Assembly (NCBI GenBank): GCA_905178155.1 | Contig: CAJINV010000006.1 | Span: forward strand, 105,415 to 152,087 | Reading direction: 5' to 3' | Length of the DNA: 46,673 nucleotides | Source: Amoebophrya sp. A120 | Lineage: Eukaryota; Protista; Dinoflagellata | Shown here: in pieces, positions 1,388 through 46,673 of the stretch | Position numbering within the stretch: the stretch's first letter is position 1 | Layout: each line of letters starts with the position of its first letter | Program-made: the position numbers and the translations under genes | Notes under the pieces: model-generated | Databases searched by the model: none | What the model was told of the DNA's origin: nothing | What the model saw: the letters and a program-made list of their open reading frames with translations, nothing else

Positions 1388-1474
1388 GGTATGCATCACA
1401 GATATCATGGCTCATGCAAAACGTGCATGACAAGTCTCACAATCGTCCAGACCCAGACATTTTCGCAGTCCATA

Positions 1475-8634: not shown

Positions 8635-11600
8635 TTACGGCCGACGCGAACTGTACTCCCAGTACAACCACCAGTCGAACGGACATTCCTTATCGATTTT
8701 CTCCGTTTCTACTTGGTCCCGGAGTTGCTTCCTGGGAGCCGCGTTCTCGAATTTGCGAAATGTCTCCCGCTATCAAATGCAAAAGTGTCTGGGTCTGGAA
8801 ACTTGCGATGCTGGGTGGCGTATCATGAGGAGGCCGCAGGCGCTGGCTCAGAATGACAAGTTTCTGAGCTTCTAGGTGTTGCCTATTCTGCATGACAAAC
8901 TGCGTTTCTGCATGACAGGAAAAAAAAAATGGGGCTCTTGGGCAATGTGCATGACAAATTCAAGAGTCATGTGAGACAAGCATGACAAACTTGCATTCTT
9001 CCAGACCCAGACATTTTTGCACTTGATATCCGCCACTTGCAAAATTCGTCTGCTACTTTTCCGCCGCACTCGCTGAAAGACGGAAGATCCGTTAGCCTCT
9101 TCTTGCCCTCCAGAAAATCCGCGAAGTTCTTGTCCATTTCTTGTTTTTTCTTGTGCCGGTCAATGTCGAGGGCCAACGCAAATTCTTCCGGCTCTCCACC
9201 CTCCTATGCATGGCGAATATGTCTGGGTCTGGATAGACGCAGCGGGAATTTGTGTTGCTGTGTATTGCATGACAGAGCGATCTTTTATACGGCATCCCCT
9301 CGTCACAAACCGCATGACAAAAAATTGTCCAATGGTATTCTATGCATCAGAAATAATCAAAATCCTTGCTGTCTTCAAAAATTCGCATCACAAATCCAGA
9401 TCCAGATCGATACTTGCAGCGAATATGTACATCTTGGCTCGCAATATCTGCTGCACCACCAATTCCACCTGGTCGCGCGGCGGACGCGTTAACTTCTCTG
9501 GCTCGTTCCTCGGAATCGACGGCACCAGGGTGGGATAGAGAAAATCCGCGATGACACCATTTACGTCCTCCGGGAGACGCTTCTGGACCACGTTGTCGAA
9601 AATGTCGACCTGCGCCAACTATCAAATGTAAAAATGTCTGGGTCTGGAAGATTGCCAGGTTTGTCATGCACATTTTGCATGAATCCTGATGTCTGTGATG
9701 CATGCCCTAGCATCACAGACTTTGTGAGGGCTTCCTGATGCCTATACCGCATGACAAATGCTCTTTCCGTGTAGCAAAACTTGGACTCTCTTTGCTGCTC
9801 ATGCAATACAGATAGAATTTTTAGAGTCCAAATTCAGCATGAGAAGTTGGATTCTTCCAGACCCAGACATTTTTACACTTGATACCAACGCGCGGTCCCG
9901 CAAGAGCTTGTGGACGGTGATCGCGTTGGTGTAACCGAGGATCTGGAGCTCCGCTTCGCGTCGCACGTACACGTCGATGACTACGGCGCCGTATCGTATT
10001 TAAAAATGTCCCCACCCCAGAGTTGTCATGCAAATCTGCATGCTGAAAATGTTTCTCATAGGGAGCTGCATGAGAAGCGTCTTCCAGTCGTGTTTTAGAA
10101 TTTGTCATGCTCCAACCAGCTTGATATAGAAGATCCGTGACGTTGCTGAGCTAGCTCAAACAGCACTACAATACGAGTCCAAATTTGTCATGCAAAACAG
10201 CCGAAGCCTGTGGATTTGTCTAGCCGGGTCTCCATCTTGGCTATGGGGTGGGGACGTTTTTACATAGGATACGCCGTCTACAAAACTCTGAAGACACTGA
10301 GAGTGCAACTCTTCAAATGTACTTGAGAGTTTTGCCAGTTCATCGCCTGCCAACACAAGCCCGTCCGCCAACAGAGTGCGTAATTTGTGGTCGCGAATGT
10401 TGTATCAAGTGTAAAAATGTCAATGTCTGGGTCTGGAAACTTGTAATGCTGCGTTGGGAATAGTGAATGCTCTGTAATGCACAGCCAAGCATGAGATGAA
10501 ATATCTGTGCTTCTTTGTGTTGCGTTTTTCGCATGACAAACTGCGGTTTTGCTTGACAGGCAAAAGGGTCTCTTCTTGGACACGCATCGCAAACTTTTTA
10601 GTCATGCCAGAGAAGCATGACAAGCCTCGCAATCTTCCAGACCCAGACATTTTTGCATTTGATAAGTTGGCCACGCGCGCACGTTGGACGCGTTCGTAGA
10701 GACTGGGGTACCCGCGAAAAGCAGTGCTGGCAGATTCGTGGAAATGCCGAAGCTTATTGCAGACGTGGGTTCTCGTGGGCAGATCTACGTCACCGACGGG
10801 CTTCCTGGGATCACGGGCGGGGCGGGAGTCCAAGTACTCATCCATGAGACGGGAGGGAAAATGGGAGAAATTACGCCTCCGAACATCAACCTCCCAAACC
10901 TTCAACTTGTTTTCTACGAGTGAAGAGAGGTCTCGCTGTATCCACCGGTCGCCAGTTTTCTTGTGTGCTTCAGCTGCTTCCCTGAGCCCCTTATTCTTGT
11001 GACTGAGCGCAGCCAGAGCTACCCGCAACTTGCAGTCGTTTTTGTTCTGGGCGTATCAAAAGGAAAAATCCCCCCTCCCCATATCAAAATGGAAATTTGT
11101 AATGCTGATTTGGGGTCACAAATCATCTTTGTCTTGCCTATAGGGCAATAGGAGCCGTGTGGCGCATTCCAAAGCCAATCTGTCATGCGCTTTCGGCTAC
11201 TGCAGACCTGTTTGCCATGTGTAATTGCTAGCCTTCCGCATACCCAAACAGGCTCAGAAAATGCCGCCACGCACTTTCTGCAAGACAAACCTGATTTGTG
11301 TACTCAAATCCAGCATCAGAAACTTCGTTTTGATATGGGGAGGGGGGATTTTTCCTCAGAATAGGGCGAGGTTCGGCTGCGAGGGGTCGTACTTGTAAAC
11401 CAGGTTTTCGATGTGTTACAATGAAACATGCCCCCACCCCCGAACTTGGGAGCATTTGTATTGCAAACCTTTCCAAATGAAACATTCGCCCTCTTGCATC
11501 TATCAGCATCACAGGTTTGTTCCTATCGTGAATAGCAAAAATTTGTGTTGCAAAAGACCCTAGCAGAAGCGGCGCTTGTCATGCAAGCGATGTGATACAC

Positions 11601-14600
11601 GCGTAGACTCTGCATCAGAAGGATTCGTACTCCTTTCATGCGTGACGAAAAGTTTTCATTTGGAAACTTCGCATCACAAATTTTTGGAACTTTGGGGGTG
11701 GGGGCATTTTTCGCTGTAATAAGATGTCCTCTCGTATCTTTCGAAACGCCTTTGCTCGTTCGTTGAGCTCGTCTCGCTGCATCAGCACCTCGTAGGCATT
11801 TTTCGCTTCGTCCTGCAGGCGCTTCTCAACGGACGAGGAAGGATCGAAAATTCGGACACCATAAAGCGCACTAGCATAGGCGAGGGTCGGCTTCCGCTTC
11901 ACTGGTGGCGCATTTTTACTAGTAGCCGAAGTTGAACTACTCGAGTTGTTGTCCTCCCACCATTCTAGGAGTCCTCTTTCTCGCGGGAAATAAGAGGAGA
12001 GCCTGCTCTGTGCTGCGGATGATGCGGTCGTGGTATGACTCCCTGCAAATGCAGCTGCTGTGGGGTCCGCGTTGGCTTTGTTGTAGGTTGGCGAAGACGA
12101 CGAGGAAGAGGAAGTTACGACTTTCAAGGAACGAGTAGAAATGCGCGTGTTAGAAGGAGGTTTTTTACTTTCTCCTGTACCCGCGGAAGCAGGCTGCATC
12201 TTCATGTGGAGGAAGGCGGGTTGTTTGGAGTTAGGTAAGACCGTCAGAGCTACTTCTTCTTCTTTCAAAGACGGATCTTCTTCGTCCAGCGTCGTTGCTT
12301 GGTCCTCTTTTCTCGAAGACGGATCGCCCAAGGTCGTTGGCGTCAGATGCACGTAGCAGGACCCGGGCGTAGCTGTGCTTGTGCGCCAGCCTTGTATCCT
12401 GTGTAAAAACGTCCCCATCTCCCCAGAGTTCTTGTCTTTGTCGCGCAAATCTGCATGGTAAAAAATGTTTCTCATGCGGAGTGCAATGGGACGCGTTTTC
12501 TAGTCGTGTTTGGAATTCGGGAGTCTGTGATGCTGCTGGAGCTAGCTAAAGAGGATTACACTGCGACGCCTATCTTTTCATGCGCAGCCACCAAGAAGGT
12601 TTTATTTGTCTAGCAGATTTCCCATTTTGCGTTTGCCTCTGGTGTGGGGACGTTTTGACTCAGGATACCTTGCTCTGTGTGTTCCTCTTCGTCTCCTGCT
12701 GCGTGTGAAAGTGCACAAGCAACCCCCCCTCTCCCTCATTTGTATTGGGCATGAACACCAGCAAGACAAGCATCCGCACGAGTGCAGGTTTTGCATGACA
12801 CATTTGCTACGCAGGATTGTAGTGGTCCTGCTTGGGCTGACAATCAAGCCTTGTCATGCCAATAGTGCTATGAGGCTGACAAAGGGTGGACGAATTGGTA
12901 CTATTCTGCGTGACAAAAAATGAGGGGGAGGGGAGGTATGTGCACTCTGATACCGCGCCGGGACCCGATAGCGGCCTCAGAACCGCAGCTGGCCTCGGCA
13001 CGGACAGCTCCGGAACGCTGTGGCGCAGGTCGTGGCTCGACGCAGATGAAGACGAGGTGGCACGACCGCCGAAACCGAAAGCGGTGGCTTTTGCTGCTTT
13101 CGCACTAGTCATCGCCGTGATCATGTGCTTTGACGAGGAGAGAAGGTTCGTGGAGGGGTCGAGCCCGCCAAAATTGGAAACCGTTGCAGTTTGCTTCCCT
13201 TCGTTATTCTTGAAGGGTTCTTTTTTGCCCGTCCCCGTGCTGCTGCTACTGGACGACGTGCCTGACGCAGTAGCTTTCTCCGAAACAATTCGTGCTGGCG
13301 GGAGAAATGACGACTTTCCGATGAGGCGTTGGGGCTGAAAGGACGAGGAGCTGTTGCTGCGAGGAGAAGTTTTATTTTTGTCCGCTTTATTAAAAATATT
13401 GCTGCTCGGTCGTGACAGAAATGAACCAGCGTGAGAACTTTGGCGCAGTCTGTCGATGTAGTCCAAAAACTCGTGCTCTTTCGCCAGGCGACCTGTTCCC
13501 CCGGAAAACTCGACGTCGCAGCTTAACCAAAAATCCGCAAGAGTGCACAAATCCGCAAGAGCGTTGTCCTGTGCAAATACGTCACCTTCGCCCCAGAGTT
13601 GTCAAGCCTATCAATTCGCTACACAATAGACCAACAAGTTTTATTGGCTGTCTCGCATGACAAGTTTGGACTCGCAGTCAAACCCAAACTTCTTTTAGCA
13701 TGCGAAGCCGCATCACAGATCGATCGTCTTATCCTGACTCTAGCATTACAACCTCCTCTTAGATAGCACGAGGATTTGTTCCCCATGCAAAGGGTTCTTG
13801 CGCATGAGACACATTTGGCGGGGGCCGGGCTTGCAGATTTTTGCATGACATCAAGTCTGGGGAGGAGCTGTTTTTACACCGGATATTTGTCTGGTTGTGT
13901 TCGCCGGATGCTTGTTTCCAAATCAGCCCAGAAAACAAACCCTTCGCTGTTGCGCCACACAGCGGGGTAGAATCCGCTTGCCGCTTCTGCTTTGGAAATT
14001 GGTGGCTTCGTTTTCTCGTGGTAGTGGAAAAAGTGGTAGGTGCCGTTACATCCGGAGCTCCCGCGAACCCACTTGACTGTCACGACGACCTGTTCTAACC
14101 ACTCTACTGCCGGTTTGTTTTTCACGCAGTGGTAGGGGATGGTTGTAATCACCTGATTTTTATTCCCGCCTCGATCAACATCGCACGCAAACTGCACCAG
14201 CACCACCCCAACTCCGTCGAGTTCGTGCCAGTTGCTGTCGCAAAGTACCGCATCTTTTTTATCGTGCAAGGAGCAACTACCCAAACTTTTTGCACCACAG
14301 TGAAGTCGAGAAGAAGAGAAGTTCTTGTAGACGAAATGGTCCTGCTTACTAGTATCATCAGCTTGACGGACAACTACATCGACATTGCTGGGTTTGGTTT
14401 CGTGTGAACTCATTTTTTCGAGGTTCGTTTTATTATTTCCACTGCCCAAGTGATTTGTACTGCTGGACGACGCGGAAGAAGATGATTTTTTACTACCACC
14501 ACTGCCAGAGCCTCCAATGCCAGAATTGCTCGCCGGTTGTGTTTATGCATTGCAAATATGTTGTCTGCTCCCGGGTCTGGAAAGTCAAAGCTCGAACGTG

Positions 14601-15988
14601 TAATCAAATCTGCATTGCATGTAATATGCGTGGTCACAAATCCTCGCTGTCCTTCAAAATTTCGCATCACAAAGCAGACCCAGATCGATATTTGCAATCT
14701 GCATACACTCTCGCTGGCTCGCAGGCTCTCCTGCTTCGCCCACTTCACCTGCTCTTCCTCCGACATTTGGGCGAGCTTGGCTTGCTCGCGGCTCTGCTGC
14801 AGCGCCCACTTTACCTGGTCTTGCTCCGACATTTGGTCGACCTCCTCCTCTGTCAAGAACTCGGCACCACTGCTTTGCAGCTGTTGCCCCTTCTCGTAGC
14901 TTTTATGCAGTAGTGAAAATGAATTTCTATCTATTCCCGCACACGTACAACGTACAGCAAGATGAACTGTCGCCACCTCATAACAAGGCTGAAAAAAGGT
15001 AGGAGCGGAAAGAACGCTCTTGCTTGCCTGCAGTAGAGATGTTGCCATTTGCAGTTCAGTACGTCTACGGGATACTAGATTTAGTATTCCTGTCGTGGAT
15101 ACTACTTTATTTTGTCCCCGGTCGCTGCACTTGTTCCGACACTAGTAGCTCGCTTTTGCTTTTTGTTTCTGCTGTCGTTGTCAGCATCGTTTTGCTCCGC
15201 CTGCATTGATAAAACGTTGTTGGAAGTGGAAGTACCAGAGGAGGTCGCGGAGGAAGATGAAGCGGCCGGTCCTGGGTTATTATTCTTCCGTTTCATAGTC
15301 GTTTTTCCTCGTGTGTTGTTCTTTTCCACGAGACCCATCTCAACGTTCTCAGCAGACTTCGCCCGACCACGCGCAGATGATACTGCTGCTGGTGCGCCAG
15401 AAGACGACGATGCGGCGACGGCGGTCGTATTGGGGATGTTGACTTCTTGCTGAGTACTATCTACTTCATGCCGTTCGTTGCTCGTTTTGATGCTCTATCA
15501 AATGTAAAAATGTCTGGGTCTGGAAGAATGCAAGTTTGTCATGCTTGTCTGGCATGACTCTTAAATCTGTCATGCACATTACCAAAGAGCCCCACTTTTC
15601 TGTCATGCAGAAACGTAGTTTGTCATGCAGAATAGGCAACACCTAGAAGCTCAGAAACTTGTCATGCTGAGCCAGCAAGTGTGGCCTCCTCATGATATGC
15701 CACACAGCATCACAAGTTTCCAGACCCAGACATTTTTACACTTGATATGCTAGTACTGGCCCCTGCTCTTTGTCCTCCTCTCTTAGCAGGTTGTCCCGTA
15801 GAGCTACTGTTGCTGCTGCTTCGGTTATTGTTTTTCGCGTTACCTCCTACTGGTGGTGCTGCTGGTGCTGCTTTAGCAGAACTAGACGCGGAGCTTGCAG
15901 CGGGCTTCTTTTTCCCATTTGTCGTGGTGGAACGCACCTGGTTCTTGTTCCGCTTGTTGTTGTTATTAGTTTTCTTGTCCGGCGGCAT
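8635..15988 (-). CDS. Large hypothetical protein (paralog 1): low-complexity N-terminus, two UIM-like motifs, conserved helical region with F-box-like motif; 13 introns
   Basis: Frame stays open after removing 15496-15747, 14904-15101, 14544-14705, 13565-13885, 12704-12952, 12395-12667, 11414-11721, 11054-11363, 10403-10664, 9992-10271, 9620-9884, 9205-9425 and 8771-9028. Contains MSEQDQVKWALQQS / MSEEEQVKWAKQES and KRLPEDVNGVIADFL. Aligns by eye with the gene at 16908-23937. The 3' end is the least certain part. Confidence 0.75.
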
Positions 15989-16907
15989 GACTTGTTTTCG
16001 TTGAGACGAAGAATGCAAGAAAGAAGTCTTATTTTCCGCAAGTAGAAGAATTCTTTGTCCACCTACTACTTGTTTCTTGGCAAGCACAAGTACAAAAGAT
16101 TTCTTCTATGGTGGTCTAAGTATAGTGAGGGTGCAGTGCTATTAAACAGGTTCAGCAACGACCAGGAGCAGGAAGCCCACAAATAAGAAAGCTAAAGCAC
16201 ACGACCCGAAGAAAGAAGACGGAATTTTACATTGTAGCAGTAGGTGAAGCAACAGCGGCATCATGAACTTTCTGAAGCAACAAGCAGTAAGATTTCTTTG
16301 GGCGGAAGAACCGATTTGGCTTGATCATTTTGGGTCCCAACACGGAAGCACTCGCTCGGATTTGGGTAAATAGAGTGAATGTTTTGGAGGTCTGCTCATC
16401 TCTCGTCATTTACTCGGCGGTGTGGTCGTCCACAGGAACAACGAGATGAACACAAGTATTACTACTTACTCCCCGAGGGTTGATGTCACGTGTGCCCTAC
16501 TTAAGGAGCCCCCTAGCTGCGGGACAACATTAAAGCATTTAAACTAGAGTGCAGCTTGTCACACTGAGTTTTTTTTTCAACAAGTCGTTGCAGCCTGAGA
16601 CAAAAAACATGTTGTCATGATGTCGTGTGTGAAAGTGTATCGTGTGTTGTTTCCTCGGAGTCACGTTTTTTTTCCTTTTGTTTCTCCTGATATGTCGGTG
16701 CTGAGCCAAGAAAAAGGAAAAGTTTTTTCCGACTGTTGTGCGTTTGCTTCATGGCACAAATCAACGCGCAAGTAAGCTAGTGTAGCTTGCTGTCGAAAGA
16801 ATTCACTTGGTAGAGATCTAGATGCCTTTTTATGAGCTAGAGTTTGTATTTGAATACAGCAACTATCCTAATCACAGAATAATATGCACTCTCTTTTCTC
16901 ATAAGTA

Positions 16908-19900
16908 CTATTCTAGTCCCTGATCCCCGTTGACGGCAGCATCGGCAAGGAGCACCTGTTGCATCTCGTAATGATGGATGGTAGCGTTGGCTGTTATCAA
17001 CTGCAAATATCCAAATTCTGGGTCAGGAAAGACGTGAATATGCTATAAACAAGTAGAGTACGCAGGCTAAGCATGACAGATTTTTGAAGGGTTCCGTGCA
17101 AAATACTGCGCATGAGAAACTGCGTTTTTGCATGACAAGGAGTCAGCGCGAATGCTATTCCACAGCACGCATTTCGAGACAAGCTGGGAGTATGGAAGTT
17201 TTAGTTTAGCACTACATACCTGGTATATTATCTTCCAGACCCAGATCGATATTTGCAGTGGGTATCTCTATCTGTCGAGAATTCCTCATCTTCGTTTCCG
17301 CCTGGACGAAAAGGTCGCTGATTGTTTCCAGGAATATCATATCAACTGTAAAAATGTCTGGGTCTGGAAGAATCCAACTTGTCATGCTGATTTTGGATTC
17401 TAAAAGCATCTGTATTGCATGAGCAGCAAAGAGAGTCCAAGTTTTGCTACACGGAAAGAGCATTTGTCATGCGGTATAGGCATCAGGAAGCCCTCACAAA
17501 ATCTGTGATGCTAGGGCATGCATCACAGACATCAGGAGTCCTGCAAAATGTGCATGACAAACCTGGCAATCTTCCAGACCCAGACATTTTTACAGTTGAT
17601 ATATCAACCTCGTGTTGTTGTTGTTCCATTTCCGCGTCTCCGTCATCCTCCGGCGGCAACAGGAGTGGACCAGCATTGTTCCCATTATTCCGCCGGAACG
17701 GTGTGCTGCCCGCCAGCATCGTGTTGAAAGTAAGACCCGGCGTGCTACTGGCCCTGCTGTGGAGGTCCTCGTCGTTGAAAGTAGAGGTAGTAGCTGCAGC
17801 TGTGTTCTTCATCTTCTTTCCCTGCATTGTACTAGTGCCTTTGATGTGGTTCTTTCTCTGTAGTACCGAGCGCTGCTGGTTGTAGTTCTGACGCGAGGAA
17901 CTGCTGCCCTGAGTAGTTTTTGCGCGAAGGGCAAGAGAACTCAGTTTCTGCTGGCGGAGGTCGAGGCTGAAGAGTCGGTCTTTGTCCACTGCGACTTGCA
18001 CCCGCAGTTGTTCCCGCAGACCCACAGCGTCGAATTTTCGGAGTTCGTCCCTCCACGCGTGTAGCTTCTGCACCGTCGTATCCCTGAGCACCACGAACTT
18101 CTGGACACTCTCGAGCGGAACCTGCGACAGCTCTACCTCGTGCTGCAGAAACTTCGCTACTTTCTCGTCGGTCTCGCGTTTCTATCGAATGCAAATATGT
18201 CTGGGTCTCGAAAAGTGGAAATTGTAATGCGTGTCCTGCATTCCTGGAAAATCTGTGTTGCGTGAGCAGCAGAAGAGCCGCTTCCTTTGTCATGTAAAAA
18301 CGGAGTTTGTAATGCGTGCTAGACATCAGAAAGCGTTTCAAAAACTTGTCATGCTTGGCTGCCATGGCAGGCGTTGCAATCAGCAGCAAATCAGCATCAC
18401 AGGTTTTCAGACCCAGACACATTTACATTTGATAGCTTAGCGACGTCCGCGTCGTAGTCCAGGAGTGCGATGCGTGACGCTACGCTCGTCTCACGGTCCA
18501 GGATCCGTTCCTCTTTTGCGTCGATTGCGGGCGGCGCTGGTCGCGGAGCCAGCCAATCCGTGATCAGCCCGTGAATCTCGGCCGGCAGTCGTTTCTGGAG
18601 GACATTGTCGAGGATATGATCGACGTGCTTCTCCACTTGTTTCCGCCAGTTGTGCTTGCTCTTTACCGAGTTGACGCGCCACGTTTTCTATCCAGTGCAA
18701 AAATGTCTGGGTCTGGAAGATTTCTAGATTTGTGATGCATATTTTCCATGACCCATGATGTCTGTGATGCATGCCGTAGCATCACTGCTTTTTGGCGCGC
18801 TTCCTCATGCCTATTCCACACGACAATCAAATGCCATCTCCGCAGAGCACGAAGTCTACCCCTCTTCCTGGTCATGCAATGCAGACCCTTTTCGAATCCA
18901 AAGACAACGCCACAAGTTTAGAATCTTCCAGACCCAGACACTTTCGCACCTGATAGCTTCAGATAATTGCGGGCGTTCAGGTCAATCACAGCAGAACCCT
19001 GGACGAAGATGCGCACGCACTGCTCATGTAGCTCCTCACAGTATTGCAAGGAAAAATCCCCCCGCCTTATATCGGACAGGAGATTTGTGATGCTGGATTT
19101 GCGTACGCAAGTCGCTTTGTATTGCTAGAAGATCAAGGGACGCAGCTGCGTCCTTTTTTGCAGCCAATTTGTGACGCTTTTTCCCACTTCCAGTCGCCTC
19201 CTGTCATGCTGAAGACGCAAGGTCTCCTCACACCTGCCAGCACTACGGCCCGCATCTTTTCCCTTCTAGCATGACAGCACGACTTTTGGCCACGAACCAG
19301 CATTGCAGGCGTCCAGCTGATAGAGTATGGGGCGGGGGGGTTTTTCACTTTGATACGCAGGCCTCCGCCAGCTTCGCCAGCTCGTCGGCCGCGAATCGGA
19401 GGCCGTTGAGGAGAACAATGACAGCGGCAGGGCTTTTTCGTGACTTGGTTGGCAAAATCAAATGCAAAAATGTCTGGGTCTGGGACAGAGCAGCTTGTCA
19501 TGCTAAATCTCAATCATGCAAAAATCTGTGTTGCATGATATACCAGAAGCTGTCGACTTTTGACCTAGTCGAGAGGCAGGTTTTCATGCAGGATAGGCAT
19601 GATAGAACCGTCACAGAATCTGCCATTCTATGTTCTACATAACACACACCATGGGTCATGGAAAACCTACATGACAAACCTACCAATTTTCCAGACCCAG
19701 ACATTTTTGCATTTGATATTGAGAGAACTCCGCGCCGTGGCCGCGAGGACGTCGTACCCCTTGACCGCGTCTTGCGCGGATTTTTCGAACAACCGAAATT
19801 TGTTAGCCAGGGCGTCTTATGAAGTGTAAAAATGTCTGGGTCTGGAAGAATGCAAGTCTGTCATGCTTGTCTGGCATGGCTCGGAAATCTGTGATGCATA

Positions 19901-23937: not shown

Positions 23938-23940
23938 CTT

Positions 23941-24101
23941 TATCACAGGAAAAAGTGTTAACGTTAACGGAATTTGTGATGCAATACAGCATCACAAAAC
24001 GTGCCCAAATTTGTAATGCATAACATGCATGCTGGGCAAAATTTGTCATGCTCATTTGCAATCCATGAAAACCGTTAACGTTAACACTTTTTTGTTTCAT
24101 A
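23941..24101. mobile_element. Singleton introner with GTTAACGTTAAC palindromes in its TIR, inserted at the predicted start codon
   Basis: Perfect DR ATCTT overlapping the ATG at 23937. TIR core AAAAAGTGTTAACGTTAACGG. Confidence 0.8.
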
Positions 24102-28700: not shown

Positions 28701-29832
28701 TCGATCCTGACACATCCATAAGCTGACCGGTCTTTGTATCCAGATCACACATGACCACGGCCCACCCGAGTTATGCATTGCAAAGAGGTCTGGGTCTGGA
28801 AGAATACAAACTTGTGATGCGCATTCCAGAACACAGAAAAATCTCCCATGTATAGGCAGCAAAAGTTGCCCACTTTCTGTCACCAAAATGGGGGATCTGT
28901 CATGCGGATTCGGCATTGCGGAAGCTTCTCGAAACCTGTGATGCTAGAGCTTCCGTGCCAGACCTTCTTTGTCATGCAAAAACAGCCTGACTCTTCCAGA
29001 CTGACCCAGCCATTTTTACATTTGATACGAGTTCTTGGCACGCAACGTCATTCGGCGGCGTAACACCATCCGATTTCTGGAGGTGAAGCTTGCCGTCCGG
29101 GCCCAGGACGGCGTAGTGACCGGGCGAGTACCACACGACTTCACCTCCTGGGAGGACCGCACCTTTTTCGGTTCTTTCTCCTGGACACAAGCCGGGGGAG
29201 GAGCTCCCGGGGTGGACCACTTGCCCCGGTTGCGGCGGCGATACGGGAAGGTGCTGCTCCAGGTGGATCTGCTGTTGCTGGGGTTGCTGCTGCTGCTGCT
29301 GTTCCTGCTGCACCATCGATCCTCGTGTTTCCTGCGCAGGAGCCGGAGCACCAGAGGCCGTTTGCTTGTCGTCCCGCTGCGTATTGAAACAAGAACCTGG
29401 CAAGAACTCAGCTGTTGGACGACGACAAGCGGGGTCGATCTTCTCCTCTTCGTTTTCTTTTGTGCGTTTCATAAAAAGTTTCGTGTTCCGCTCGAACCGA
29501 GAAAAGGCTCCGCGAGGACGCGAACACGTTGCTGGAGTAGGCGCAGTTGTTGCTGCATCTTCACCTCCCTCGAGGACACCACGTCCTTGTGCTCCTCCTG
29601 CGCAGCAAGGGCATTCTCCGTTGGTCCCGGTCTTGTTGTTCTCCGCAAACCCGGTGGTGCGCAGGGCATGGGCGTCAAGGACATTGTGCGAGATGAGGCC
29701 ACTGATGTTCAGCTTCAGGGCGAAAAAAACAACTGCACACGTGGTGGTCGCCGACCAGGGTAGCAGGTTTAGGACCATCGTGCGGGCGGGCACAACGCTC
29801 GGCCTCCGGTAGTAGTTCATCTTGCTGTTCAT
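25774..29832 (-). CDS. Q/P/S-rich hypothetical protein with hydrophobic N-terminal segment and a 47-aa internal repeat; 4 introns
   Basis: ORFs 28972-29868 and 26339-28540 join in frame after removing 28772-29027 and 28412-28720 (VACQELGWAVVMCDLDTKTGQLCRIAENC). Removing 26152-26361 and 25824-26102 leads to a TAG at 25774. All four DRs are perfect. Confidence 0.75.
26152..26361. mobile_element. Introner family D (representative; about 5 copies), TIR TATGCAAGAAAAAAAAGTGT
   Basis: DR CTAGA here. Others: 20232-20449, 32436-32661, 33475-33683 (inverted), 35535-35740. Confidence 0.9.
26462..26745. repeat. 141-bp coding tandem duplication
   Basis: gtcgtacata at 26501 and 26642; encodes (SRGxSKPPGVW...MTQQPRGxSMYDGxQRKxxYxEQSA) twice. 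Confidence 0.85.
28412..28720. mobile_element. Singleton introner, TIR TATGGAWGTGTCAG
   Basis: Perfect DR AGCTG; frame restored on removal. Confidence 0.85.
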
Positions 29833-30599
29833 CTTTTCGCGAGGGAATAGAGAACTTTTCGTCAGCACTTTCTTGCGTCGTTCTCAGAAAGCGGCGAGAC
29901 AATTCCAGGTTACTTTCTGATCTGGATAAATGCGCTTCGCGACTTGCTGTTCCGAGTACGGGGGAATTCCGAGTACTACTATTATGTATGCCGGGTGTAG
30001 AGCTGGCTGTGATAAAATCTTTTGAATGTATGAAGGATGTGACACGACCAGTGCCAGGAACGATGGCCGCTTTGGCTTTACTTAAGTGGCTGCTCGTGTA
30101 AGCTGCTTTTCCGAGTGGTTGGTAGTGACCTGTAAATTGTAAAAAACTATATGGTGTAATAAAATTTGGAACAAAAATAGATTTTTGTCTACACGTGTAG
30201 TAGTTCTGGTTCGTCTTGGCGTAGTTCTTGTGGATAATTTATCCTCAAATCAAACCGGAGCGAAGACACGCTGTTCACTCGCTTCTTCGTCGGTATAATC
30301 ACTGGCCGTGGAGTTCGTGTGGAAGAAAGATTTCAAAATTACGTATTAAATAAAGTGAATTCGGGACTAGTATTCGGATCTACTTCAGGATCGATATAAT
30401 TACGTCGCGGTAGATGAACACTTGTGAAAGAGCTGGTGTGAAAAATGTGTTCGTGATTTTGTTGTATGAACTCGGTCTGACGGATGCAGTGAAAAATGTT
30501 TTATAGCGTATAATTCTTGTCCATGTCGTGATCATCGAGCAAAAACAACTTTTCTGGAAAGATATGAGTCCTGGGTCTTCTTGCTGTCGTGCCAGCACT

Positions 30600-30857
30600 G
30601 TTATTTTCGGGACCCTCGCCTGCTCCTACACCGGGCGGAAACAGCCGCCCAAGCAGTCTAAAATCTGCCATGCCTGTATTGGAGCGCACCCGCGGGTGCG
30701 CTCCACTGTGGACCCAGTTATTTTCGGGACCCTCGCTGGCTCCTACATCGGGCGGAAACAGCCGCCCAAGCAGTCTAAAATCTGCCATGCCTGTATTGGA
30801 GCTCCAATGTAGACCCAGTTATTTTCGGGACCCTCGCTGGCTCCTACAACGGGCGGA
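30600..30857. repeat. Intergenic tandem repeat, about 2.4 copies of a 100-117 bp unit with palindromes
   Basis: gttattttcgggaccctcgc at 30600, 30717 and 30817. Hairpin ggcgg-aaacag-ccgcc. Perfect palindromes at 30680-30705 and 30795-30808. Confidence 0.9.
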
Positions 30858-31359
30858 GCCAGCATCATCACGCTAGCAACAACGCCGAAAAATAGAAACT
30901 CAGGACGACGCTCTGATTCGTTATTTCGCACTCCTCGGAAAGATGAACGCACAAAAAACCCAGATTGCTCTAAAAGCATGATGACCAAATGAACACACGT
31001 TCAGCACTACTATAGACAGCTAAGATTCGCCGCAAATCCAAATCGCTCGGTCGGGGTGTGTGTTTATTCTTGTGCTATTTTGGCCTTGCTGTAGTCTCGC
31101 CGTGCAACACAAATATACGTGCAACTACACAAATTTTCCGTCAAAAGATATTGTGGTCTCTTATCATACGGATAGAATGTTGGTCTTGCCTCCCAAGGTG
31201 GGCGAGATTGGTTTTTTGCACGAACAATAACACTCCTCACCCCGTCGCAGCCGCAGGGAATGTTATTGAATCTGCGTGACTTACGATAAGATTAAGAGGG
31301 TATTAGTAGTACAAGGACCTTATGATCAATAAATTTTTGCAACATCTTCACGAGCAGTT

Positions 31360-34300
31360 CTAGATGGGGATGTAAAGTGTTGCGTTCGTATGAATATTGT
31401 CCATGTCCTCCACTTATCAACCGCAACAATGTCTGGGTCTGGAAGAGTCGGGACTTGTCATGCACATTTTGCATGACCCGTGAGGTCTCTGATGCTGGTG
31501 CTAGCATCACAGATTCTTTGAGAGCTTCTTGATGCAAATTGCGCATGAGAAATGCCCTCTCCGCGTGCCAAGAACTGACTCCTCTTGCTGCTCATGCAAC
31601 ACAGATATTTTTAGAATCCGCAGACAGCATTACAAGTTCCACTCTTCCAGACCCAGACATTTTTGCTATCCATACCACTCGTGTGATATCCCAGGCCCGT
31701 AGCGACTGCTTGAATTTTATCATTTGTAAAAACGTCCCCACACCAGAGTCAAGATGGGAAATCTGCTAGACAAATCAGCCAGCTTTGGTCATTTCGCATG
31801 ACAAGTTTCTCCTCGTAGTGTAATCCTGTTTAGGTAGTTCAGCAGCATCACAGATCTAGTATATCATGCAGATTATAGCATCACAAATTCCAAAACACGA
31901 CTAGAAAATGCCTCTCATGGCGCTACGCATGACAAACTTTTTTGGCATGCAGATTTGCATGACAACTCTGGTGTGGGGACGTTTTTACTCAGGATAAATT
32001 TTGCCGCCTGGAAAAACATGCTTGCCATGTTCCTCACAGTGCTAACGTCCCACTTATCCATATCCTTTGTAAAAAAAACGTCCCCGCCCCATAGTAATAG
32101 CCAAGATGGGAAATCTGCGTAGAAAAATCAACAAGCTTTGGCTGATGTTGCGCATGACAAGTTTGACCTCGTAGTGTACCTAATCCTCTTTAGCCAGTTC
32201 AGCAGCATCACAGATCTAGCATATCATGGTGATTGGGGCATTACAAATTCCAAAACTTCTACACGACTAGAAAATAAGAATGCTTCTCATGGGACTCCGC
32301 ATGAGAAACTGAAACATTTTCCGCATGCGGATTTGCATGAAAACTCTGGGGTCAAATTCTGGGGTGGGGACGTTTTTGCAGAGGATAGTCCAGCGGCTGG
32401 TTAAATTCCCGGGCGGTCATAAACATCCCTGACATTATCGTGAGAAAAAACTGTTGCAGTTACACACTCTGACGCAACATCAGCAAGACAGACAATCTCT
32501 GTCATGCAGGAGATGCTTGCCAATGCCAGCTTCATTTCATTCGTCTTTTCCGTTATAGTCATCTGCGCATTACAAGTTTGCTTTGCCGTGCAGAGCAAGT
32601 TTGTGATGCTGAAATTCCAACAAATGGGTAACTGTTATAACTACACTTTTTTCCGGTGATAGACATGTCCGTCACATTACTGACGTTCCAGTCATTATCC
32701 CACGAAAAAAATGTTTCACTGTGGTGATCCTGCAAAATCTGCATCACGACAAGTTTGCTACGCATGACACTGAAAATCTGTCATGCGGGGTTCCTATCTA
32801 CTTAAGGGAAAACACAGCTAGAAATCAATTGTCTTGCCTGTGTAGCATGACACACACTTCTGCGTGCGATCCATTTTCTGCATCACAAGTTCACAGTGAA
32901 ACAGTTTTTTCTTGCGATAGTCATTCAAGGGCTGGTTGAAATTACTTATGCATTGCAAAAGCACCATTGCACTCGTATAATAAATGCAGTACAAATTTAC
33001 TCGGCATGAGAAATAAAATTTGTAATGCGGATTTGCCTTAAGAAAAAGATTTGTAATGCATGACTGCAATCGCTACGAGTACGATACTTTTGCACAGGAT
33101 ATTACTCGCGCCAAAAAACATCCGGTCCATCGTTGTCACGCTGAAAATATGCATTGCGATTATGTCTGGGTCTGGAAGTAGATTCCGAGATTTGTCATGC
33201 AGTTTTTCCAAGCTTCCTCGAGTCTGGAATGCGGGGCCTAGCATCACAGGTTCTCTCTGCAGCCCCTCCGTGATGCCTATAATTCTGCATGAGAAATTCA
33301 TAGCCTCTCTGCATGGCCAGAAGTGCGCACCTTTTGCCAGTCATGCAACACAGATCTTTGCGTGATCCGCAACTCGCATCACATCAATTTCGGATCCTTC
33401 CAGACACAGACATATTTGCAATCCATAGGAAACATCCCAATCTTGGATCGGCTTATTGAAGTTCACCGCACCGCTATCCAAGAAAAAAAGTGTGTTAGTG
33501 TAACTATCTTTGGCTGACAGCATCACAAATTTGCTCTACATGACTGAGTAAACCTGTCATGCGTGGCCTGTAAGGGAAAACACACATGAAGCGAGGACTT
33601 CATGGTTGTCCGGCATGACAGACGTGAGGCTGTTGCATGTTCTGCATTACAGAGTTACACTTACACAGTTTTTTTCTTGCATAACCGCTGAACATGCCAA
33701 CCATGGTTTTCGCGCCACTGATATGCATCCCAAAAAATGTCTGGGTCTCCTGGAAGATTTGGAGAGTTTGTCATGCAAATTGTACATGGCCTTCGAAGAT
33801 GCATTCTCTAGCATCACAGCTTTCGCAAAGGTTTGCTTAAAATCCCTGTTCTGCATGAGAAATGCCCTCTTCGAGTGGCAACAATCCGAGCGCTTTTTGC
33901 CTCTCGTGCAATACAGATTTTTGTGTGAAGATCGACAGCTGGCATCACAAATCCCATTCTTTCCAGACCCGGACATATTTGCAATGCATAACTGACGTCC
34001 CACTGGCTTATGTCCAGGTCGAAAAAGAAGGCGCGGGTAAATAAATTGGAAAAGTCTTCCACCTGCGACAGGTCCCAAATGCGGATGGGCCCGTGCCTTT
34101 TCTCGATCTCGAAAATTTCCCGGACCTGCTATCGTAAGGAAAAATCCCTTCACCCCATATCGAAACGGGATTTCTATATGCTGGATTTGTGTACACAAAT
34201 GCGCTTTGTATTGCAGGAAGGCATTCCCTTGTCTTCTTGCACGACAAATGTGATTGGTGGTCACAAACCAGCAACACAAATTTTCGGAAACATACCTTTA

Positions 34301-36010
34301 TTTCAGTATGGGGAGGGGAGATTTTTCCTCGCAATAGCTGCTGCTGATAGGAGAACTCGTCGTGGACACGGGTCGCCAGACTGTCCTGTTTGTACGGAGT
34401 ATCAAAAGGAAAAATCCACCTCCCCATATCGAAAACGAAACTTCTGATGCTGTATTTGAGTACACAAGTGGACTTGTAATGCTAGAAGACCAAGGGCCGC
34501 AGTGGTGGCCTCAATGGGAGGCAATTTGTCATGCTGCTTCCCACTTCCAGCTGCCTCCTGTCATGCTGAAGATGCAAAGGTTTATTCCCACGCCACTCAG
34601 CACTACAGTGTCTACAGCTTTTCCCTTCTAGCATGACAAAGCTGATTTGTGACCACAAATCTGCATCACAGATTTCCGTTTTGTTATAATTGGTAGGAGG
34701 GATTTTTCGTCCTGATACGGGGTCAAAGCGGTTTCGAGGGCTTCGCGAGTGGGGATCGGGTCATAGAGGCGGACGAAGTAGCGGACAGAGAGAGGCGAGG
34801 AAAATAAATGTTGAGCTACAGCATTTTTTTGTAGTGTTGATCCACCCGTAGGCCGTCGTTTCTGGTCCTGCAGATGATCAGGGGTCCTCTGCCTCGATAG
34901 TGGTACTTTTTCCCGCTCAGCCTCACTACTGGTCGCGCTGGTCAGGTAAAAATTTATTTCGGAACCAGCATCCTCATCGTCCGCTCTACAAGAACCGTAG
35001 CTGTGTTTACTGTCCCATGCTGAGTAAAGATGTCCCCACACCCAAGTCAAGATGGGAAATCGGCTAGACAAATCAACAAGCTTTGGTTGTTTCGCATGAC
35101 AAGTGTGCTCCTGTAGTGCAGTCCTGTTTAGCTAGTTCCGAAGCATCACAGATCTAGTATATCATGCTTATTCTAGCATTACAAATTCCAAAACACGACT
35201 AGAAAATGGATCTCATTGGGCTTCGCAAGAGAAACTTTTTTGGCATGCAGATCTGCATGACAACTCTGGGTCTGGGGTGGGGACGTTTTTACACAAAATA
35301 TCTCCGTGCGCGCTGCTCGGAGAAGGTTCAGCTGCGTTTCTTGCGGAAGGATGCTGGTGGTGTTTATGGTTCTTTGCGACGTCTTCTCGTCTCCAGTCCT
35401 GCCATGGTCCACAGCCTGCTCAAAAGCTCGGAAAAAGTTCTCGTCTTTCCAACTCCCGGAAGACGGCAAGGCGTCCGTGTTTCCGATAACCGTTTCGCCG
35501 TCCTTCAGAAACAGAATAATGTTTTCCCAAAAGCTATCAAAAGAAAAAAGCGCGTGACAGTTACACATTTGTAGTCAATTCAGCAACACAAATTTCTCTG
35601 CATGATAATGCAGAAATCCTACGGGAAAACACCTATGAAACGACGCTCCTATGCATATCCGGCATGACAGAGCTTGTCTGTCTTGCTTGGCGTGCAACAC
35701 AATGTCTGTGTAACTGTATTAACACTTTTTTCTTGCGATAAAAGCAGCGATGCCGTTTCGACGCGGTCCCGTTCTCGTCTAGCGTACTAGCAGGTGCAGC
35801 GTGAACTACCCGGCCAGCACTTCCTGCTCTGACCGCCGCCGCTACGGCTTTGCGTACTTCTTGTACCGTTGTGACCTTCGTCTCGAAAGTGTCTGCAACG
35901 GGCAGTGCCTCATCGGAAAGCGCGTTGCGAACTTTCAGGCGGAATGAAAACGGGTCTACGTTCTTTGACGGAGGCTGTTCGACATTCTTTTCTTCCAGTG
36001 CGGACTGCAT
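31360..36010 (-). CDS. BspA-type leucine-rich-repeat (DUF285) protein, paralog 1; 13 introns
   Basis: Spliced product contains HGPIRIWDLSQVEDFSNLF...FDLDISQWDVSGAKTMVGMFSGAVNFNKPIQDWDVSSVTTMDRMFFGASNFNQPLNDWNVSNVTDMSGMFMTAREFNQPLDKWDVSTVRNMASMFFQAAKFKQSLRAWDITRVEDM. This is the DUF285 25-aa repeat (FNQPLxxWDVSxVTxMxxMF). Elements removed start at 35535, 35016, 34400, 34130, 33722, 33475, 33148, 32947, 32696, 32436, 32061, 31718 and 31415. Confidence 0.9.
32696..32919. mobile_element. Introner family E (representative; 4 copies), TIR TATCGCAAGAAAAAACTGTTTCACTGTG
   Basis: DR GTCAT here. Others: 1511-1719, 21502-21722, 42213-42407. Confidence 0.9.
32947..33101. mobile_element. Introner family H (2 copies, about 155 bp)
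   Basis: DR TTACT here; closely similar copy at 36966-37121. Confidence 0.85.
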
Positions 36011-36923
36011 CTATTCTTCCATGTGTTCAATATCTAAATATCCAAGTAGACCTATTTGAAGATCTAGGTGTGGCTTATTTTCAGGAGGGTGAGAACATCA
36101 ACATATATTCTTTTCCCTTAGTCTGTCTAAGTACTACTTGCTTCCTGTGTGGGGTAAGTTTTTGACCAGCAAAGAAAAATCCTGTACTTACCACGACTAC
36201 CGAATCATCTTCACAGCTATGTAACTACGCCTGACTGCCTCAAGGCTCGCTCGGGGGCATTTTCATACGGGCCCTCTTTCTAGTTTTCGTACTAGCGCAT
36301 CAGGGGGACGGACGAGATCTGAGGGAAGGTAATGGGGGTAGCACACGTTTAAAGATACTAGTCCGCATTCTTATACCCAATATAACCAATATCATGAAAC
36401 GACCAAATCCGAAGTTGAAATGTCGGACGGACAGGAGCTGCGGACTTTGAATCGACCTCTCAACCAAAAGTTGATTTTTTGCTGTTTCAAAGCCCTTTTC
36501 TCGCACTGTATAAAAAATGAGTCCAGATTTTGGCACGAGGTTTTCTACTCAGAAAAAAAACGCAACCGAGTTTTATTTGTAGTTCCCCCACCGCAAAACA
36601 AATGCCTAAACATCAACATAAAAGAACACACATGTAGTTCACCTTAGCACTGCACGACCAGCACAACAAGGCAGCACGGAGCTTGCGCTCAGAGCGGTTG
36701 AAGGTCAAACCGCCCGAACAGTCAGTCGCGGCGATTTTTGACGGATAGATTTTCTCCGAATATCGAATTGCAGCAGGAGCCCATCGAAGTGAAAGGATCG
36801 CACAAAAGAGGCAGAAAAGTATTTTAAGAAAATGAAGCTTGTCCGCTTTGTCAACACGCGGGATCAACAGCCGCTTCTGCTTCTGTAGTCTTCAGGGACG
36901 AGAGCGCTTCAACATCGTCAACA

Positions 36924-39900
36924 TCAGCTTCTTTGATTTTTAGAAAATTCCACATCGAAATATTCTATGAATTGCAAAAGTATCGTACGTGCATAAATGC
37001 ATTGCAAATTTCCCCAGCATGAGAAATAAAATTTGTAATGCTGATTTACCGTAAGAAAAAGATTTGTAATGCATGCTGCATGCATGATTGCAGTACGAGT
37101 ACGATATTTTTGCACAGGATATACTCGCTAAACCAGGTTGGGTCTTCCTCGCGCAGTTTTTCTTCATTTGCTATCGAAACGAAAGATCCCCCCTCCCCAT
37201 ATCAAAACGGAATTTCTGATGCTGGATTGGTGTACACGAATCAGCTTTGTATTGCAGAGAGGCACTGCGGCCAGATCCCCAGGCTAGGTAGGGGCGTATG
37301 GGCCTAGTTGTTCAGCATGACAAACGGCTGACCTTTAGGCCCAACAGCATGACAAATTGCTTCCATAATGGGGCGGAAGCTTCTGCCCTTGTCTTCTTGC
37401 AAGACAGGTGTGATTTGTGACCTCAAAACAGCAGCACAAATTTTCGGAAACATACCTGTTCGATATGGGGAGGCGGGATTTTTCCTCTCAATATTTTCCC
37501 GGAACCAGTGCCACCACTCCCCGGCTATCCTGTGGAAAACCGTCCCCACCCCATAGTCAAGCTGGTAAGTCTGCAACACGAATGTTCAAGTTTTGCGAGT
37601 TGTGCATGACAAGTTCGTCCCCTCTGCAGCGTAGTGCTGGTTAGCAAGGGAAGCTGTGTGAGGAAGTCATTTTCTCATCCTGTTTACATCATTACAAGCT
37701 TCAAAACACGATTGGAAATGCCTCTCATGGAGCTGCGCATCACAAATCGATTCCTGTCATTGCACATTTGCATGGCAGCTCTGGGGTGGGGGCGTTTTTG
37801 CTCAGCATACCGGCCGCCGAGGGCAGGCCGACTGCGGACCAGTCTTGCGCGCCGCCATCGTCGAGCTGAGCTGCCTATCAAATGCAAAAATGTCTGGGTC
37901 TCGAAGATTTGTAGATTTGTCATGCATATTTTCCATGACCCATGTTGTCTGTAATGCCTAACCTGGCATCACAGATTTTTAGAGGGAATCCTGATGCCTA
38001 ATCTGCATGAGAAATGCCCTCGCCGTGTAGAACAAACTGGACTCCTTTTGCTCCTCATGCAATACAGATTTTTTTCGAATCCGAAGACAGCATCACAAGT
38101 TACAACCTTCCAGACCCAGACATTTTTGCAATCCATACTGCCTCTGGTGTCACTTCATCTTGTTGCCTCGACCCTGATATTAAAACAGTCCCGGAACTAC
38201 AAGAACTTTCATCATGCGGCCCGAAGATGTCGAAGGCCAGGGCGCCCTGCGGGGGTAATTGCCGAAAGGCGGACGCGGTTGCAAGCATCTGCCTGCAGTT
38301 GGTGCTTCCACTGACGATCCAGCTCGCGAGAGAATGGTTAAACGCCTCGGCACCATGAAATATTTCTTCCAAATTGGTTGTGATTCCAATCTATGCATTG
38401 CAAATATGTGTGGGTGTGGGAGATCGCGAGATTTGTCATGCTAGTCTGGCATGACTCTGAGCTTTGCATTGCGTGGCCGCGAAGTAGAGCTCCTCTCGCC
38501 TGTCATGCTAAGCCGCAGTTATTTCTCATGCGGAGTACGCAACTCAGAACCACGGAAAAACTTGTCATGCTTGAAAGCGTAAGCGCATTACAGTGTGCTC
38601 ACTATTCCCTTCCTTGCATCATAAGTTTCCAGACCCAGGCATATTTGCATTTGATACTACCTCCCATCTGTCCAGTGCCTGGTTGAAGCGCTTCGCGTGC
38701 TGAAACATCCGGGCCATAGAAGTCACTTCCCTTTTGCATTGCAAATATGTCTGGGTCTGAAACCTTGTGATGCTGGGTGGCGTATCATGAGGAGGCCACA
38801 AGTGCTGGCTCAGCATGACAAGTTTGTGAGCTACTTCTAGGTGTTGCCTATTCTGCATGGCAAACTGCATTTCTGCATGACAGAAAAATGGGGCTCTTGG
38901 GTGACGTGCATGACAGATTTAACAGTCATGCCAGACAAGCATGACAAACCTGCATTCTCGTCCCAGACCCAGACATATCTGCACTTGATATTCCTCACGT
39001 CCCAGCCATTCAAATCCCGGTCGAAATTAACCGCGCACGAAAACATCCCCTATCCTGAGCAAAAACGTCCCCACCCCAGAGTCAAGTTGGGAAATCTGCT
39101 ACGACAAATCAGCGAGCTTTTCTTGTTGCGCATGACAAGTTCTTTGGCGTCGTAGTGTGATTATCCTGTTGAGCTAGTAAAGTAGCATCGCAAATCTAGC
39201 ATCTCATGCTGATTGAAGCATCGCAAATTCCGAAAAACGAACTGAAATTGCTTCTCATGAGAAATATTTTCAGCATGCAGGTTTGCAAGACAACTCTGGT
39301 GTGGGGACGTTTTTACGTAGGATACCCCTTCCATGTTGGTCACCTTCGATACGTCCCACTGACGGATATCTTGGTCGTATCCTGAGTAAAAGCGTCCCCA
39401 CCCCGTAGTTGTCATGCAGATTTGCAGTCACAGAAAGATTTGTCATGCGGATCGCCATGAGAGACAATTCCAGTCGTGTTTTGGACTTTGTGATGCTGTA
39501 AACAGGATGAGCAGAAGGATTTGTGTTGCGGCTGTACTTGCTAAACTGCACTACAATACAGAGACGAACTTGTCATGCTTTACCCCCAAAACCTCTCTTC
39601 ATGTGTTGCGAGATCCCCATCTCGACTCTGGGGTGCGGACGTTTTTGCTCAGCGTAGGTCGAAAGCCAGGCAGCCGGCGAAGCAGTACTGGAGGTTGGTA
39701 ACGCGGCTGGTGTTCCACGCATCCAGGGGTTGGTTGAAGTCTTTGTTTTCGTAGAACATGAGCTCCATGGTATTCTGTGTAAAAACGTCCCCACCCCAGA
39801 GTTGTCATGCAAATGTGCAATGACAGGAAGATTTGCATTTGTAATGCGCACTTCCATGAGGGGCATTTCCAGTCGTGTTTTGGAATTTGTAATGCTGTAA

Positions 39901-44527: not shown

Positions 44528-44932
44528 CGTCTCACTTTAAATCGCCACAATGTTGTTGAGCAGGAAGAAAAGTAGAGGCGGTCTGGTAATCAACCATTCA
44601 TCTACTACTTTCAGCGATCAGGATGAAAAATCTTTTCATCGGCGGATGATCCTGTTATAGCGCGTAGGAATGAGTTCACTTGTGGTATGTGCCTATTTTC
44701 TCCGCAGCGCTGTTTTTCTGGAGAGGACAGAAAGGCATTCGACTAGCCATGAAGTTGTGTAGTGCTGTAAGTTTTTCCTTTCATGATTTGGGACTAGATC
44801 ATATGTAATGTGCAAGAGCGGGCAATAAATCATTGGAAGAAGACTGCGAAGGCCTAATATTACATGAAAAAGCGATGCAGTATATTTTCTTTTTGTGCAG
44901 GTCCTTCTGGCAAGGTCGCGCCCAGGTGCGTG

Positions 44933-46563: not shown

Positions 46564-46673
46564 TATGAACTGCAAATATCTCTGGATGTCTGGAAACTTG
46601 TGATGCAAGAAAGGAAATAGTGAGCACACTGTCATGCGCCCCCTAGCATGACAAGTTTTTCCGTAGTTCAGAG

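Follow-up and report, generated by a model that had tools for sequence, protein, structure and literature searches.

Evidence for a gene-directed 4+1 splice register in the introner introns of Amoebophrya sp. A120

The minus-strand genes in a stretch of 46,673 nucleotides (nt) from Amoebophrya sp. A120, a dinoflagellate parasitic on algae (contig CAJINV010000006.1, positions 105,415 to 152,087; hereafter the window) are interrupted by inserts of the form TAT...ATA, typically flanked by two copies of a 5-nt direct repeat. These inserts stand in either orientation, are removed from likely transcripts exactly as core+5, the core being the TAT...ATA insert itself, and at every readable site follow a 4+1 register, in which four repeat bases are kept from the upstream copy and one from the downstream copy. 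Writing k for the count of repeat bases that the upstream copy contributes, this corresponds to k=4 and to an intron N-TAT...ATA-NNNN. That this register is fixed and depends on the direction of the gene is very probable, with good support from a modest set of sites. The elements as such are already published, and the fixed register is a new rule for a known class. The machinery is less settled than the register: we lean towards a spliceosome with relaxed ends, and regard a stem-guided system as a possible but unlikely answer.

The splice register at contig joints and mismatched repeats

Four sequencing runs were compared over positions 28000-46673. X1 and X4 consist of contigs, are guessed to be RNA and come from one study, X8 is of unknown type with DNA-like behavior, and X9 is raw RNA on record. 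Among the 15 of 447 joints that were listed, 13 skip an element, and in all 13 it is exactly core+5 that is skipped; the other two join repeat interiors and were rejected as artefacts of repeat families. Four of the 13 (32061, 34130, 33148 and 35016) have mismatched repeats, all in one gene, and two more sites are informative through the ends of contig pieces. The gene and the six introns, with repeat copies given as upstream/downstream, are as follows:

31363..36010, minus strand: DUF285 gene with 13 element introns; spliced open reading frame (ORF) of 446 amino acids (aa), equal to the deposited protein P0001 over residues 1-430
32057..32388 (core 32061-32387), minus strand: intron, TGGAC/TGGAT; joint 32056->32389 in X1 and X4; k=0-4
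33144..33428 (core 33148-33427), minus strand: intron, family 1, orientation F, TTTCC/TTTTC; joint 33142->33428 in X1 and X4; k=4-5; P0001 residue S353
34126..34337 (core 34130-34336), minus strand: intron, GCAGC/GCAGG; joint 34125->34338 in X1 only; k up to 4; P0001 residue V284
34396..34718 (core 34400-34717), minus strand: intron, CCCCG/CTCCG; k at least 2, inferred from the end of a mismatch-free piece, 34716-35010, in X1 and X4
35012..35301 (core 35016-35300), minus strand: intron, family 2, orientation F, GGAGA/GGACA; joint 35010->35301 in X1 and X4; k=4-5; P0001 residue E166
38388..38657 (core 38392-38656), minus strand: intron, family 1, orientation R (opposite to 33148), GGTAG/GATTG; k at least 4, from the end of the X1 contig piece 38138-38386 (depth 5.2, one contig)

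The ranges allowed at the four mismatched joints leave k=4 as the single common value. The same value is favored by P0001, a deposited Amoebophrya sp. A120 protein that carries DUF285 and is 100% identical to the 97-aa exon 34718-35008 (minus strand) of this gene; a search of the PDB with a DUF285 exon gave no match. Over residues 1-430 the spliced gene shows 0 differences to P0001 at k=4, but 2 at k=0-3 and 1 at k=5.

A reading of the DNA letters alone, hereafter the sequence-only reading, had deduced the register from four mismatched repeats at 11414, 14904, 39051 and 33148, and all four cases are correct letter for letter on the minus strand. Besides 33148 they comprise:

11410..11722 (core 11414-11721), minus strand: intron under 4+1, CATCT/CATCG; under 5+0 a stop breaks the 620-aa ORF
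14900..15102 (core 14904-15101), minus strand: intron under 4+1, AGTAG/AAAGC, repeat decayed to 1/5
39047..39325 (core 39051-39324), minus strand: intron under 4+1, AGGGG/GGGGA; no joint among the joints listed

With upstream base 5 the frame at 11414 ends in a stop after IREDI instead of continuing as IREDIENLV, and at 14904 the full upstream copy gives a stop after DKIK; both sites thus exclude k=5. At 39051 the sequence MEGMF needs downstream base 5 and otherwise becomes MEGVF, which prefers k up to 4, while at 33148 WDVSS needs upstream base 4 and otherwise becomes WDVFS, which prefers k of at least 4. Among the 31 mismatched window elements in long ORFs, stops exclude 5+0 only (2 stops), leaving k=0 to 4 undistinguished. 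As only k=5 gives stops, the sequence by itself bounds k firmly from above only, and before the contig and protein checks the lower bound in this evidence was one consensus residue. The sequence-only reading had proposed to read cDNA junctions at mismatched repeats. Likely-RNA contig joints provide this over 28000-46673, and for 11414 and 14904 the evidence is ORF continuity.

According to the Fig. 3 legend of PMC7789003 the splice sites of these introns vary, with their border unknown, and an alternative account would have the cut slide within the direct repeat from one intron to the next. The agreement on 4+1 would then be a small-sample accident or a majority register. Most single sites indeed limit k from only one side, the contigs show the majority form at the few joints listed, and stops discriminate poorly: among 54 elements with mismatched repeats in other loci (see below), one stop appears at each of k=0, 1 and 3 and none at k=2, 4 or 5, and in two of the three stop cases the repeats match at no more than 2/5 bases and may be mis-called. 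A test for AT drift of the intronic repeat copy was null as well. Against sliding, no site read contradicts k=4, one site in a related assembly (L077:1646-1943) allows k=4 alone, and the invariant T that follows the predicted first base in the direction of the gene needs a fixed donor position. If k were random between 0 and 5 for each intron, the rough chance of the ten constraints is 7e-4, and that of the six contig constraints alone 0.017. We consider a sliding cut improbable.

Some features of the data nevertheless count against a fixed register. X1 and X4, whose RNA nature is a guess, stem from a single study, and contigs hide minority junctions. Contig-level information on the register comes from 6 window sites only, and the P0001 model was built from transcript alignments, as the accessible text of PMC7789003 states, and may share RNA with X1 and X4.

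Gene direction and element direction

A pattern scan brought in 143 loci (L001-L143) of a related assembly that is filed among metagenome contigs; the gene tested there shares about 90% identity with its A120 orthologue. The assembly carries the same element families (77-91% identity in the best hits), with 385 unique elements in the 143 loci. ORF and codon score gave an orientation for 223 of them (110 in plus-strand genes, 113 in minus-strand genes, no mixed locus). One apparently informative site, L076:5854-6106, was discarded as a boundary mis-call, since an end 6 nt further out gives a perfect repeat and, by eye, a better protein, which from its motifs we take to be NRAMP-like. For this reason all 12 oriented calls with repeats under 3/5 were dropped as likely mis-calls. 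The remaining 211 locus elements, with intron phases of 96:51:64 under 4+1, make a total of 285 with the 74 elements of the window.

Within the minus-strand genes of the window the elements point both ways, 13 vs 13 in family 1 and 6 vs 7 in family 2, with no inconsistent edge among 126 and 69, respectively; in the other loci the ratio is 59 vs 45. Elements 33148 and 38392, both of family 1, have opposite orientations (as judged from scores across subfamilies, which concur in 88% of 165 pairs) and both require k of at least 4. In family 2, L077:1646-1943 (GAGCA/GCGTG) is opposite to 35016 (scores 53 same, 173 opposite). Of the possible readings here, LLAWS, LLEWS, LLERS and LLEQS, the third arises at k=4 only, and it is the one found in the A120 orthologue P0003 (ELLERSV); all 3 differences between the repeat copies lie in the parts made intronic by 4+1. 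The boundary N + TAT...ATA + NNNN of the sequence-only reading is thus borne out by contig joints, by P0001 and by the L077 orthologue.

In the plus-strand gene L023 (GAAGG/GCACG) the options are H, N or K, with K requiring k of at least 4. The three best matches after the gene's own fragment (P0005, P0006 and P0007) have K, and P0007, the closest long homologue, reads TGKGALFCGG; the 22 pattern-matching hits include 11 with A, 4 with K and none with H or N. Judged by homology rather than RNA, L023 shows the flip of the register expected for a plus-strand gene. As oppositely oriented elements share one register relative to the gene, and as the register flips on the plus strand, it follows the gene and not the element, and the proposed tie to the direction of transcription holds.

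DNA-level eliminated sequences of the ciliate type leave the joined form in the DNA. Excision of this kind, or a register set by the orientation of the element itself, is very unlikely here and largely refuted. The TA-containing inverted-repeat ends with target duplication would suit excision, and X1 and X4 have no RNA status on record. The DNA-like X8, however, supports 0 of the 13 listed joints (its counts are flagged incomplete) and its pieces cross elements; depth in X1 and X4 is zero between genes; and X9, which is RNA on record, shows a single one of the joints listed, 46252->46490 (perfect repeat), in 400 reads, with fixed differences to the window in the copy that they come from. A register set by the element is at odds with the shared register of oppositely oriented copies.

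The region around this joint, 46110-46564, has high coverage in X1, X4 and X9, fixed substitutions (46145, 46160, 46175) and loose ends on both sides, and probably represents a paralogue or an incomplete copy, the expressed gene lying elsewhere. Among the loci no paralogue families usable as references were found. L077:4580-4865 and an insert near L077:3800-4036 have two in-frame readings each and were left out of the counts; the latter, whose boundary is ambiguous, starts with TAAT instead of TAT and would still keep T-A at +2/+3 in its in-frame readings. Two further genes, presumably Rab-like (L028, k at least 4) and dehydratase-like (L046, k=1-4), fit 4+1 only by comparison with a consensus, and were not counted.

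Intron ends and the machinery that may read them

The ends of the introns were counted under k=4 for the 285 elements. T and A at +2 and +3 are the canonical donor positions, and both are kept (285/285 and 284/285), followed by T at +4 (276/285). On the 3' side A at -7 (283/285), T at -6 (280/285) and A at -5 (275/285) are nearly invariant, and +1 and -4 to -1 are free. The G at +1 and the terminal AG of canonical U2 GT-AG introns are not kept (91/285 and 27/285, both together 9/285), and GT-AG could be reached at any k in 15/285. The ends fall into 61 classes, which bears out the claimed absence of a terminal dinucleotide rule, and the base composition of the direct repeats is near the exon background.

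Since detection makes no distinction between the two ends, and insertion occurs in either orientation, any difference between the ends reflects the transcript. First-base deviants number 0 at the 5' end vs 10 at the 3' end (p=0.002, n=285), and TA deviants 1 vs 15 in the pooled set (n=285) and 0 vs 9 in the window (p=0.004). This 5' conservation of T-A at +2/+3 points to sequence reading at the donor. The published end classes are in line with it: in Table S4 of PMC7789003 each of the nine end pairs that predominate in A120 has T in second position, and those of A25, whose repeat starts TTA, invariably begin with TT. These predominant classes hold 56/285 elements at k=4 vs 0-31 at other k.

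We therefore lean, without strong commitment, towards removal of the inserts from likely transcripts at a gene-directed N-TAT...ATA-NNNN boundary by a spliceosome that needs neither G at +1 nor a terminal AG. A TAT...ATA insert enters either way with a 5-base target duplication and, because each inverted-repeat end carries T-A-T, either orientation would offer the donor N/TA. Its T at +2 and A at +3 would match the canonical GT-A donor and be read by sequence, and the acceptor would be counted four bases past ATA instead of being read as AG. The near-invariant A at -7 is a candidate branch point from which this count may start. The direct repeat would serve only to make the mRNA seamless at insertion, and could later decay without loss of frame. 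An element in which the repeat has fully decayed is at hand:

14540..14706 (core 14544-14705), minus strand: intron under 4+1, no repeat left, GAGTG/AACAC (0/5); evidence from the ORF only

The core has no in-frame stop, and removal of core+5 joins two ORFs into one of 781 aa; by this ORF evidence, matching of the repeats is likely not the signal. As to the machinery, only six of 89 spliceosomal proteins and, among the small nuclear RNAs, only U1 were not detected in A120, as given in the accessible text of PMC7789003. Fixed branch-to-acceptor distances are described for Yarrowia, Trichomonas and Giardia in the parts of PMC2483917 at hand.

Several observations weigh against a spliceosome that reads these ends. 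U1 was not detected in A120 (PMC7789003, accessible text), and the lariat and the branch point are predictions from the letters. At +1 there is no enrichment of G (91/285 vs a background of 29%). An excess of terminal AG is confined to the window (12/74, p=0.002), with 15/211 vs 15.2 expected in the other loci, and decayed repeats do not drift toward AG; an AG/G proto-splice preference, suggested by the window, was accordingly not replicated in the other loci and was rejected. The asymmetry of TA deviants is 1 vs 6 in the other loci alone (p=0.125) and 2 vs 8 with the 12 dropped calls restored (p=0.11), including one 5' CAT; the asymmetry of the A at -7 is not significant, the third-base deviants lying in the opposite sense (9 vs 2, p=0.065). 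Finally, the part of Table S4 in PMC7789003 used here may have been shaped by an aligner preference for GT-like donors.

Given the same 4+1 register, the mechanism put forward in the sequence-only reading is a Euglena-like, stem-guided one: the inverted repeats would pair in the RNA, and an unknown nuclease and ligase or a non-standard spliceosome would cut 1 base before and 4 bases after the base of the stem. The many end classes without a terminal dinucleotide and the missing U1 (PMC7789003, accessible text) are in accord with it, as are the long predicted stems, at -79 to -110 kcal/mol in three introns, and a stagger that pairs +4 with -7 as does the N6 form of the Euglena code in the available text of PMC12501133, a likeness drawn here. 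Conversely, stem mismatches on the transcript strand show no excess of G·U over A·C (73:71 in the window, 171:181 in the other loci), and the energies of sense and antisense arms are equal (p=0.88). Stem positions 2-3 admit changes that break pairing, yet the T at +2 never varies, and 35016, whose 3' end reads ATG, has ends unpaired at the base of the predicted fold and is still skipped at depth 144. Note that the stems are long, so that single mismatches may be invisible to selection, which softens this case. With no sense-strand G·U bias, and with a direction-dependent 5' T-A that points to donor sequence, a cut measured from the base of an RNA hairpin was not upheld, and we rate stem guidance as unlikely.

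The nonconventional introns of Euglena, with the code N3-CDG...CH'G-N5-6/R in the available text of PMC12501133, likewise lack a terminal dinucleotide, have fixed unequal spacers around an inverted motif and a MITE-like (miniature inverted-repeat transposable element) origin, and show a sliding ambiguity at direct repeats that was resolved there via non-slidable introns. The likeness is one of kind and not of length, the A120 spacers being 1 and 4 with the motif TAT/ATA; neither CDG at +4 to +6 nor the purine rule is found in A120 (T at +4 in 276/285; first base of the next exon a purine in 164/285). The need for pairing was tested in Euglena (PMC12501133), whereas in A120 pairing is predicted from sequence, with no G·U strand bias. 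Euglena introns are excised as full-length circles without lariat, according to the review PMC11282704 as far as accessible.

The introners of Aureococcus and Polarella, as described in the available text of bioRxiv 10.1101/2020.10.14.339549, are also DNA-transposon-like, insert in either orientation and have their borders inside the target duplication; in Polarella class 12 the donor consists of the last duplication base and the first element base. Their target site is constrained, as it has to supply a G-H donor and an AG acceptor; the A120 target sites are free of this constraint (GT-AG 9/285). Introns of Fritillaria borealis share an origin from terminal inverted repeats and target site duplications, non-canonical ends and, according to the accessible part of the review, an adapted spliceosome (PMC11282704), but keep the preferred ends AG-AC and AG-AT, whereas in A120 the first and last base are free. 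Non-canonical introns of diplonemids are a further analogue (PMC12621601, accessible text).

For A120 itself, the view of variable splice sites is repeated in the available texts of PMC11453091, PMC12005148 and PMC11282704, and PMC12130899 gives no register in its accessible part; such introns are cited as unprecedented, with a mechanism that is unknown. Our description differs from that in the accessible text of PMC7789003 by a border fixed at 4+1 that follows gene direction and by an invariant T at +2. A fixed direction-dependent code N-TAT...ATA-N4 was not found in that text, figures apart, although the Fig. S23 legend, with repeats 'located at 1-5 nucleotides' from splice sites, may partly anticipate fixed offsets. 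A literature search found no statement of a fixed register; most subscription papers lay outside it.

If the register is fixed, the reported variety of splice sites reduces to differences in target-site sequence under a single rule, junctions can be re-annotated by the tens of thousands, and the harmlessness of the elements wherever inserted is explained. The mechanism also becomes open to sharp tests: a branch at -7 or circles, T at +2 vs stem pairing, and spacers of 1 and 4. As a tentative extension, on balance doubtful, all of the ~30,000 A120 introner introns may obey N-TAT...ATA-N4, read by a machine that works without U1 and disregards the first and the last base. A TAT...ATA transposon would in that case form a seamless intron wherever and whichever way round it inserts, the +4/-7 stagger would be convergent with Euglena, and A25, with its TTA ends, would use the same donor of T at +2 and A at +3.

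Elements and genes of the window

The window holds 74 curated TAT...ATA cores across 1511..46489 in minus-strand sense (72 at first, 2 added), 155-494 nt long with a median of about 265, and core+5 amounts to 43% of its length. The 5-nt direct repeats are perfect at 42 elements and mismatched at 32. In 72 curated elements the copies agree in 59-68/72 at offsets 1-5 vs 12-23/72 outside, and the repeats are not due to chance. Our element detector found 65 elements in the window vs 0 in each of 3 shuffles, and recovered 63 of the 74 curated ones.

The terminal inverted repeat comprises TAT, seven looser bases and at least three A, as published for A120 introner elements, and terminal inverted repeats, target duplication and both orientations are features of MITE-type DNA transposons. 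The elements form repeated families, and their removal is seen in contig joints (X1 and X4, guessed RNA) and in X9, RNA on record. In organism, inverted repeat, short direct repeats, families and removal in RNA they match the introner elements of A120 described in the accessible text of PMC7789003, where direct repeats are given as 3-5 nt (5 bp in the Fig. S19 legend) and no transposase for the elements is reported.

Elements 13565, 14904 and 19456 show repeat decay resembling that of 14544. In these four and in 18689 the repeat copies differ at base 4 as well as base 5, so that any one of them would fix k by itself. Element 41303-41796 has 494 nt, about twice the usual length, is related to 34400 and 7822 and is possibly nested or internally duplicated.

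Removal of core+5 yields minus-strand ORFs of 1011, 781, 650, 626, 620, 446, 340 and 317 aa, whereas with core+3, +4, +6 or +7 there is no ORF above 366 aa except one unspliced frame of about 700 aa. Besides the DUF285 gene they include:

36927..44536, minus strand: second DUF285-like gene, 20 elements; stop-to-stop spliced ORF of 626 aa, likeness to the first judged by eye
8638..12735, minus strand: 620-aa spliced ORF, 8 elements, holds 11414
12810..16105, minus strand: 781-aa spliced ORF, 4 elements, holds 14904 and 14544
16911..22059, minus strand: 650-aa spliced ORF, 12 elements

No deposited protein was found when one exon of this second DUF285-like gene served as the query. The last element of the first, 31415-31674, is skipped in X1 and X4 contigs, whereas the P0001 model reads into it and ends differently; P0003, also a deposited A120 protein, seems to run into an element in the same way, the one that matches L077:579-833, and the A120 annotation seems to miss such introns. 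Over 32406-32691 an unspliced X1 contig of depth 28 occurs beside spliced forms at 144-205, as pre-mRNA or intron retention.

By eye, the 620-aa and 650-aa ORFs have common motifs (DELAKL..., VxQKRLPxx(I/V)xGxIxD) and look like diverged paralogues. The 317-aa spliced ORF, at positions 1408-4078, contains a stretch resembling a membrane segment, and its motifs may be isochorismatase/nicotinamidase-like. The first 480 positions of the window are a degenerate A-rich tandem repeat, with an AT skew of 0.59 over the first kilobase.

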